Positions 22,002-22,261 of a stretch of 64,000 nucleotides of DNA are shown here, in pieces. Source of the DNA: a virus. Taxonomy: Duplodnaviria; Caudoviricetes. Positions within the stretch are counted from its first letter, which is position 1, and each line of letters opens with the position of its first letter. The stretch lies in IMG/VR virus record IMGVR_UViG_3300028283_000231; one strand, 5' to 3'. Below the pieces are notes generated by a model, which was not told the origin of the DNA, did not search any database, and saw only the letters and a list, made by a program, of their open reading frames with translations. Both the position numbers and the translations under genes were made by a program.

Positions 22002-22148
22002 ATGACAGAGCACGACGTAGTAAGATATAAGGATAGGACAGGGACAGTCGTTCATGTTTATAATGAGAATGTTTTCGTAGTTGAATTTACAAATTACGAC
22101 GGACATGAATCTTTACTATTAACATTAAATAAAGAGGAGGATAAATGA
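22002..22148 (+). CDS. DUF4926-like small protein (not in track)
   Basis: MTEHDVV...GTVVHVY...VVEF...G. Confidence 0.6.
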
Positions 22149-22261
22149 AAGTAAGAGCATCAATTAAGAAAAGAAGTGAAGATTGTAAGATCGTGAAACG
22201 TCACGGTGTTATGTATGTAATTTGTAAAAAGAACCCTAAGTTTAAACAGAGACAGGGGTAA
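22145..22261 (+). CDS. rpmJ: 50S ribosomal protein bL36, Bacteroidota type (not in track)
   Basis: [38 protein letters not shown] (38 aa), preceded by GAGGAGG. Confidence 0.95.

Follow-up and report, generated by a model that had tools for sequence, protein, structure and literature searches.

A zinc-free Bacteroidota-type bL36 gene placed directly before rtcB in a giant lake phage

The bL36 gene and the phage genome that carries it

The DNA analyzed here (the window) is a 64,000-nucleotide stretch of IMG/VR virus record IMGVR_UViG_3300028283_000231 (Duplodnaviria; Caudoviricetes), in which a small rpmJ-like gene for ribosomal protein bL36 lies directly upstream of rtcB, a gene for an RtcB-family RNA ligase. 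bL36 is a late-binding protein of the 50S ribosomal subunit. The two genes and their Shine-Dalgarno (SD) motifs are as follows.

22134..22140, + strand: SD motif GAGGAGG, 4 nt before the bL36 ATG (-11.9 kcal/mol)
22145..22261, + strand: rpmJ-like gene for a 38-aa bL36 of the zinc-free Bacteroidota type (ATG start, TAA stop)
22260..22266, + strand: AAGGAGG as the SD motif of rtcB, its first two bases being the last two of the bL36 stop codon (-11.6 kcal/mol)
22272..23312, + strand: rtcB, gene for a 346-aa RtcB-family RNA ligase, short and RtcB2-like (PF01139, E 1.7e-25)

The original prediction, made from the sequence alone, had described an open reading frame (ORF) for bL36 that was translationally coupled upstream and closely spaced to rtcB downstream. 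The coordinates agreed with this description: the TGA of a 48-aa DUF4926 ORF overlaps the bL36 ATG as ATGA, and the rtcB ATG (22272) follows 10 nt past the bL36 stop. The 38-aa product matched Ribosomal_L36 (PF00444) over its full length (residues 1-38 of 38; E 1.2e-21; 77 bits against a cut-off of 26.1) and the NCBIfam model TIGR01022 (rpmJ_bact) with 63 bits (cut-off, 22.7), which confirmed its identity, while the "type B L36" model NF002021 gave 69 bits at a cut-off of 70. Both ends, the N-terminal MKVRxS and the C-terminal KQRQG, were as conserved in bL36 (translation; alignment with the 9I5T, 7JIL, E. coli, and Thermus chains). Alignments to E. coli and Thermus bL36 revealed that two zinc ligands were replaced (Cys11 by Ser and His33 by Phe) and two were retained (Cys14 and Cys27), as had been noted from the sequence; with Ser11/Phe33, the CCCH zinc ribbon of the C+ subtype was not present. 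All family-invariant positions were retained in the phage protein. Three residues (His20, Val22, and Met23) differed from every sampled Bacteroidota bL36, all at variable positions, and alignment indicated that Thermus bL36 also has His20 and E. coli bL36 also has Val22. Judged by its sequence, the gene encodes, with near certainty, a bL36 of the zinc-free subtype.

The motif KRSEDCKIV occurred in more than 120 species-representative genomes, almost all of them Bacteroidota (Alistipes/Rikenellaceae, Marinifilaceae, Flavobacteriales, Saprospiraceae, and others). The 117 cellular proteins extracted from these loci were all 38 aa long and all carried Ser11 and Cys14, with Phe, Tyr, or Leu at position 33 (Glu in one variant) and Cys or Asn at position 27. 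The phage protein was best matched in the Protein Data Bank (PDB) by bL36 chains from 7JIL, the Flavobacterium johnsoniae ribosome, and from entry 9I5T, both with a single Cys. The motif distribution and the 7JIL match upheld the "Bacteroidota type" label. Since the Ser11/Phe33 form is ordinary in the host phylum, being normal in the 117 cellular sequences and in 7JIL and 9I5T, the host protein is already zinc-free, and the earlier idea that the phage copy makes ribosomes zinc-independent adds nothing and was discarded. The closest sampled cellular bL36 shared 34 of 38 residues and 90 of 114 nt (79%) with the phage copy; at 80-90% identity, 38 residues carry too little information to point to a donor. 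Matches among protein representatives were mostly over-extended ORF calls of cellular bL36 and were used only for the Cys pattern and as leads. At the cellular loci, rpsM adjoined rpmJ in 111 of 120 cases, and the window had no S13 or S11 homolog.

A second 38-aa bL36 of the Bacteroidota type outside a ribosomal operon was encountered on two contigs of 1.4-1.6 kb (L140:597-713 and L141, the latter with 325x in its contig name). It shared 33 of 38 residues with the phage copy, His20 included, and the gene caller had run past its TAG stop. About 590 nt upstream held no convincing ORF or infA, and three small ORFs lay downstream; this copy may be part of a second phage or other mobile element.

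The window corresponds to positions 24481-88480 of the complete record (G000; 108,427 bp), which is labelled "provirus" and rated 50% complete by CheckV. It contains a tRNA array at its start, several homing-endonuclease genes, and a gene for a Lon-like protease. Over a 46-kb locus extending to both sides of bL36, the window was colinear, block by block, with LR756501, a 735,411-bp complete circular phage genome from Lac Pavin (LP_PHAGE_COMPLETE_CIR-CU-CL_32_25) at about 92% nucleotide identity in this region. LR756501 was assigned to the Mahaphage clade, with Bacteroidetes hosts predicted (Al-Shayeb et al. 2020, PMC7162821). It encodes a 100% identical bL36 protein, again followed after 10 nt by rtcB, and the same bL36 was present on six more metagenome contigs (JGI and ENA samples), all five of those listed having rtcB 10 nt downstream. 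A join of host and phage DNA, which would have undermined the original prediction, was thereby excluded, and by sequence the bL36 gene sits, with near certainty, in a genuine phage genome. Its carrier is a giant lake phage of the Mahaphage clade, with Bacteroidota as predicted hosts. Given the colinearity with a 735-kb circular genome, the "provirus" record is probably misclassified and represents a piece of a giant phage of lytic type rather than an integrated element.

Shine-Dalgarno signals, substitutions, and transcription

SD strength was taken as the energy of the SD:anti-SD duplex at 119 starts of the 108-kb record, and values of -7 kcal/mol or better were counted as strong. Only 6 of the 119 starts had a strong SD (median, -0.6 kcal/mol); the bL36 SD was the joint strongest, and bL36 and rtcB were both within the top four. 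An S24-like ORF at 20737 was a third strong-SD start in the same gene row. In LR756501, AAGGAGG occupies the same spot before bL36, although the sequence further upstream is unrelated. No strong SD preceded any of the 117 cellular Bacteroidota rpmJ genes (minimum, -5.6 kcal/mol), and the rpmJ SD fraction has been tabulated as zero (PMC7797042). An SD before rtcB was likewise absent in all five bL36-less relatives for which DNA was available (see below). In Bacteroidia ribosomes, the anti-SD is sequestered by bS21, bS18, and bS6, and loss of bS21 leads to a gain of SD use (PMC9976891). Collectively, this pattern suggests, without showing, that ribosomes whose anti-SD is free preferentially translate the ribosome-related genes of the phage.

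The 735-kb phage also encodes a 66-aa bS21 (LR756501 542936-543088; L132:1492-1692) with an SD of -11.8 kcal/mol, and its start shares the GGAGGATAA-ATG context with the bL36 of the window.

Between the window and LR756501, the bL36 genes differed at 3 of 117 nt, all at third codon positions and all synonymous, with no nonsynonymous change, and the rtcB genes differed at 38 synonymous and 12 nonsynonymous codons. Metatranscriptome contigs from two lake-water studies (Logan) bridged positions 21956-22486 and 22011-22486, covering the DUF4926 ORF, bL36, and the 5' part of rtcB. The same RNA libraries gave little or no cover at 21670-21896 and 25983-26200, where the DNA run was even. Furthermore, the RNA contigs of both studies stopped at 25918/25919, just past the DUF2828 gene described below, and the DNA contig continued. 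These observations argue for real transcription of a unit ending near 25.9 kb. Differences in contig depth between genes were not used to rank expression.

Scans for sigma-70 promoters and terminators yielded counts below shuffle expectation; the sole predicted "terminator," located inside bL36, was set aside as a probable chance match. The Bacteroidota -33/-7 promoter pattern was not enriched either (7 matches versus 4 expected). Two + strand matches to it, at 19445-19475 and 19751-19782, share the core GCGAATTTT...TATCTTTG and might act as phage promoters upstream of the rtcB gene row.

Rarity of viral bL36 and gene turnover around rtcB

A tblastn search with bL36 in a collection of 50,697 phage records matched 15 records, among which only LR756501 and its twin LR756503 matched at 99% or more within a verified phage genome. 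Two records were rejected as viral bL36 carriers after their neighbours were considered: CAKLQF020000004.1 ("Acinetobacter phage MD-2021a") is a bacterial cluster from rplF through rplQ with secY and rpoA, and MT835508.1 ("Bacteriophage sp.") is a bacterial cluster running adk-map-infA-rpmJ-rpsM through rpoA. The remaining matches, judged by their descriptions, were also rejected as Salmonella genome contigs, short fragments, or records with non-Bacteroidota hosts at 55-68% identity. Mislabelled bacterial contigs such as these two would inflate naive counts of viral ribosomal proteins. Among the 2.9 million contigs of IMG/VR, a degenerate N-terminal DNA pattern gave one chance match in a tail-fibre-like ORF, and a degenerate C-terminal pattern hit 8 loci, of which 4 held a recognizable bL36: two were host-type infA-rpmJ pairs at the edge of the locus, one lay at a contig end with its in-frame N-terminus absent, and one was 5'-truncated. 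As these pattern scans are not equivalent to a survey with hidden Markov models and covered IMG/VR except for records near the window, "rare" is a lower-bound statement here.

The 5'-truncated copy (L004:7170-7282; IMGVR_UViG_3300025858_000656) is a Bacteroidota-type bL36 frame without the first six codons or any ATG, located right behind a perfect 19-bp hairpin in an AT-rich viral contig with a LAGLIDADG gene. It is either a remnant or a frame with an odd start.

No report of a virus-encoded bL36 was found in a full-text literature search. Mizuno et al. 2019 (PMC6375957) queried PF00444, and bL36 was not among the 13 rows below the topmost ones of their Supplementary Table 2 (HPF included), nor does "L36" occur in their main text. 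The main text of Al-Shayeb et al. 2020 names S4, S1, S21, and L7/L12 (PMC7162821), and "L36" strings occurred in its supplementary GenBank files (200 of 257 covered), all of the listed ones being spurious. PhiMa05 (2026) encodes bS1, bL21, bL27, bL33, uL11, and uL1 (PMC13157829). bL36 is a further member of the class of virus-encoded ribosomal proteins, unreported in the literature searched, although a genome that carries it has been public since 2020. The viral-database search sustained the rarity of the gene, and the copies of this phage lineage do adjoin rtcB; the linkage did not hold in the other direction, as related rtcB lineages had no annotated bL36.

The remaining features of the gene row are listed below.

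21036..21941, + strand: free-standing GIY-YIG homing endonuclease (Pfam GIY-YIG and SegE_GIY-YIG, weak, just below curated cut-offs)
22002..22148, + strand: 48-aa DUF4926 ORF, lineage-specific (PF16277, E 2.7e-08)
23314..23496, + strand: 60-aa ORF between rtcB and the DUF2828 gene (from the ORF list; no family match)
23529..25846, + strand: DUF2828/DUF7788 Ro/TROVE-vWA-like RNA-binding gene (PF11443, PF25043, and weak VWA_2; PHROG 850 "RNA-binding protein," E 4e-96)
23983-24843: LAGLIDADG endonuclease ORF splitting the DUF2828 gene (Pfam)

The site upstream of rtcB is a hot spot of gene turnover. The DUF4926 ORF was not in LR756501 and was present on four of the five listed metagenome contigs with an identical bL36; the GIY-YIG gene is strain-variable, and LR756501 has other small ORFs in place of both. 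A population variant joins position 20725 to 22011 with six other letters between them, skipping 20726-22010 and thus removing the S24-like ORF and the GIY-YIG gene; it was seen in one DNA run and one RNA run (lake). Downstream, the 60-aa ORF after rtcB was kept as a 60-aa ORF in LR756501. The two halves of the DUF2828 gene and the LAGLIDADG ORF (23529-25846) occupy three different frames; this gene is an unbroken 486 aa in LR756501 and is split in the same way in a relative on an ERZ1426824 contig (RtcB, 81%).

The phage ligase was 96.5% identical between the window and LR756501, and it also matched PHROG 1075 "tRNA splicing ligase" (E 9e-38). Its best NCBIfam models were NF007153 (103.7 bits; cut-off, 407) and TIGR03073 release_rtcB (81.5 bits; cut-off, 271.8), and several of its homologs are named "release factor H-coupled RctB" by JGI. 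Cellular relatives at about 50% identity came from Hymenobacter, Runella, Chitinophagaceae, and Cytophagales. A phmmer search against PDB sequences gave no match at E 1e-3, and tblastn of RtcB in viral contigs returned nothing; the viral relatives below came from a protein-homolog search and the contigs encoding its hits (percentages are RtcB identities).

L144, 88%: syntenic, with purA, a 69-aa ORF, and a 63-aa ORF
ERZ1426824 contig, 81%: syntenic, its DUF2828 gene also split by a LAGLIDADG ORF (from a gene table only)
L146/L147, 80%: bL12 gene 1.8 kb upstream of rtcB
L145, 75%: different neighbours
L150/L151, 72%: different neighbours
L148/L149, 71%: different neighbours

The homology between L144 and LR756501 picks up again precisely at the ATG of rtcB, so the SD-bL36-SD block was inserted immediately before an rtcB that was already present, in the sublineage that comprises LR756501 and the window. 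In the relatives, rtcB overlaps whichever gene is upstream, so that tight spacing is generic there. By these sequence comparisons, the adjacency of bL36 and rtcB is a lineage-specific insertion and not evidence of an old functional module. The rtcB neighbourhood does collect translation cargo, as exemplified by bL12 in one relative.

That bL7/L12 gene (L146:330-716; ena:ERZ27247850:k141_837336; Pfam Ribosomal_L12) has no SD, and an endonuclease VII gene lies between it and rtcB. In the window, a release-factor gene without domain 1 (4945-5628) lies 17 kb upstream of rtcB and contains two in-frame TGA codons; it scored 165.7 bits on RF1 models versus 67.7 on prfH and has a PrfH-like architecture. 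No prfH lies beside rtcB, whose neighbours are bL36 and the 60-aa ORF.

Possible roles of the phage bL36 and comparison with known systems

We favor, by a modest degree of confidence, the reading that the phage copy supplies bL36 to host 50S subunits during infection, replacing or supplementing the host protein. A bL36 gene of the host phylum's type, with a strong SD on each side, was placed before the rtcB start codon and has since changed at synonymous sites only; on this reading, the protein would be made in infection and would enter host 50S subunits instead of, or beside, host bL36. The phage copy could then keep ribosome assembly and upkeep going when the host no longer makes its own ribosomal proteins, a role that has been proposed for other ribosomal proteins of phages. 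The full-length family match, the phage setting, the synonymous-only differences, the strong SD of the gene, and its RNA cover speak for this reading, and proteins of the same type have been resolved in the ribosome structures 7JIL and 9I5T. Several points weigh against this reading. It is not evident what the phage would gain from a second copy, given a near-identical host bL36 (up to 34/38 residues). Only a single narrow lineage has the gene (the window, LR756501, and contigs nearly identical to these), and bL36 was not annotated in the six related rtcB-bearing lineages (RtcB, 71-88%), with tblastn at E 0.01 detecting none in the five with DNA; with six related lineages lacking an annotated copy, bL36 is dispensable for this phage group. 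It may be recent cargo beside a homing-endonuclease hot spot. Moreover, the signal of selection rests on three substitutions, and the RNA-library contigs give neither strand nor proof of a single transcript.

These points lead to the strongest alternative, which we consider unlikely yet still worth weighing: bL36 would be a neutral or near-neutral passenger with no real part in infection, a small host-derived gene picked up recently at a hot spot, of recombination or of homing endonucleases, that lies upstream of rtcB. Its presence in a single sublineage, the other small ORFs at the bL36 position in the syntenic relatives L144 and the ERZ1426824 contig, the variability of the site (the GIY-YIG gene and DUF4926 ORF missing from LR756501, and the DNA variant skipping 20726-22010), and the 5'-truncated remnant in the AT-rich viral contig L004 would all fit such a passenger. 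However, the ORF is intact and encodes an identical protein in genomes about 8% apart, with synonymous changes only; its strong SD was not inherited from a cellular rpmJ; RNA-library contigs cover it; and no sampled cellular rpmJ exceeds 79% nucleotide identity to it, so that the capture was not very recent.

The original prediction had proposed that the phage protein restores bL36 on ribosomes repaired by RtcB. In its developed form, RtcB would religate cleaved rRNA and a dedicated phage bL36 would make the 50S subunit complete again after repair or re-assembly; we regard this idea as improbable. The constant 10-nt gap between the genes in the window, LR756501, and the listed contigs is consistent with such a partnership, as are the domain-1-less release-factor gene, the Ro/TROVE-like RNA-binding gene downstream of rtcB, and the relative with bL12 near its rtcB. 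The ligase is nearest to the RtcB2 type, known for repairing 16S rRNA in damaged ribosomes (PMC9304027). However, rtcB is kept without an annotated bL36 in six related lineages, the tight spacing is generic among relatives, and the phage RtcB scores far under the RtcB2 model cut-offs. The known RtcB2 substrate is the 30S decoding center, whereas bL36 belongs to the 50S subunit (PMC9304027). Of the original idea, the type of ligase and the bL12 gene of one relative remain in its favor, and the adjacency no longer counts for it, being lineage-specific. Two tempting over-readings are corrected here: the rtcB adjacency is no conserved module, and the zinc-free sequence is no phage adaptation.

Ribosomal proteins are known, in general terms, to have functions outside the ribosome, and the bL36 fold could conceivably bind RNA as a small basic cofactor or act as a decoy for some host factor or defence that targets the bL36 site. 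The change of the basic Lys20 and Arg/Lys22 of sampled Bacteroidota to His and Val, which lowers the charge, is the kind of difference such a use might leave; but the family-invariant positions are intact, the changed positions vary naturally among bL36 proteins, and nothing points to another partner, which makes this use very unlikely. Finally, an assembly chimera or host contamination at bL36, to which the "provirus" label, the 50% CheckV completeness, and the mislabelled bacterial ribosomal operons among most other "phage" database matches might point, is effectively refuted by an independently assembled and curated circular phage colinear on both sides of bL36, by the same junctions in six further contigs from other samples, and by the absence of ribosomal-operon neighbours from the window.

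The supply of bL36 to host subunits, the reading favored here, has a cellular parallel in E. coli, where the paralog bL36B displaces bL36A in stationary-phase ribosomes (bioRxiv 10.1101/2022.02.09.479841). As with bL36A/bL36B (RpmJ/YkgO), a second bL36 gene able to stand in for the primary one in ribosomes would be at hand; however, the E. coli genes are chromosomal and Zur-regulated in response to zinc shortage, whereas in the present case the extra copy comes from a virus and the primary protein of the host is zinc-free to begin with. Compared with the cellular Bacteroidota bL36, the phage protein has the same length (38 aa), the same loss of zinc ligands (Ser11/Phe33), and at most 34 of 38 identical residues; the cellular genes stand beside rpsM in a ribosomal cluster without an SD, whereas the phage gene stands between the DUF4926 ORF and rtcB with a strong SD and carries His20/Val22/Met23.

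With the virus-encoded ribosomal proteins described so far (PMC6375957, PMC7162821, PMC13157829), the phage bL36 shares a small host-derived gene in a phage genome outside a ribosomal operon and a presumed role as a substitute for the host protein. Its three synonymous differences, with no nonsynonymous one, lean toward purifying selection but are too few to establish it. It differs in that bL36 is absent from the proteins named in the covered parts of those papers. Known phage ribosomal proteins are dominated by loosely bound ones (bS21 and bL12), and bL36 would add a late-assembling 50S protein to a group that is taken as evidence of host-ribosome remodelling by viruses. The phage that carries it is related to one of the largest phages known.

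The rtcB side of the locus recalls two known arrangements. RtcB2 ("release-factor-H-coupled") religates 16S rRNA cut by colicin E3 (Tian et al. 2022, PMC9304027). Like that RtcB2-PrfH module, the phage has a short RtcB nearest to RtcB2 models and a domain-1-less release-factor homolog in the same region; unlike it, the phage has no adjacent prfH, its RF1-like gene lies 17 kb off, its RtcB falls far below the cut-offs, and the known module includes no ribosomal-protein gene. The TROVE/vWA RNA-binding gene downstream of rtcB (DUF2828, DUF7788, PHROG 850) is a feature of the Ro(Rsr)/Y RNA/RtcB operon; an Rfam scan of the whole window at gathering thresholds detected tRNAs only, and divergent Y-like RNAs would escape it.

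The SD motifs resemble the SD autoregulation of rpsU (bS21) in Flavobacteriales (McNutt et al. 2023, PMC9976891), in which a strong SD likewise marks a ribosomal-protein gene although SDs are normally ignored by the ribosomes; the cellular example is limited to bS21, and a similar control may apply to the phage bL36 and rtcB. By extension, bL36, the RtcB2-like ligase, and the bS21 of the 735-kb genome might form an SD-led set, in a genome otherwise devoid of SDs, translated mainly by incomplete, damaged, or phage-remodelled ribosomes, in effect a sensor of compromised ribosomes for their repair or completion, a speculation to which we attach a low probability. If it were true, ribosome repair and completion functions would be switched on only when ribosomes are compromised. 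The strong SDs at bL36, rtcB, and bS21, in hosts that normally ignore SDs, offer a testable handle on the timing and targeting of translation genes in giant phages.

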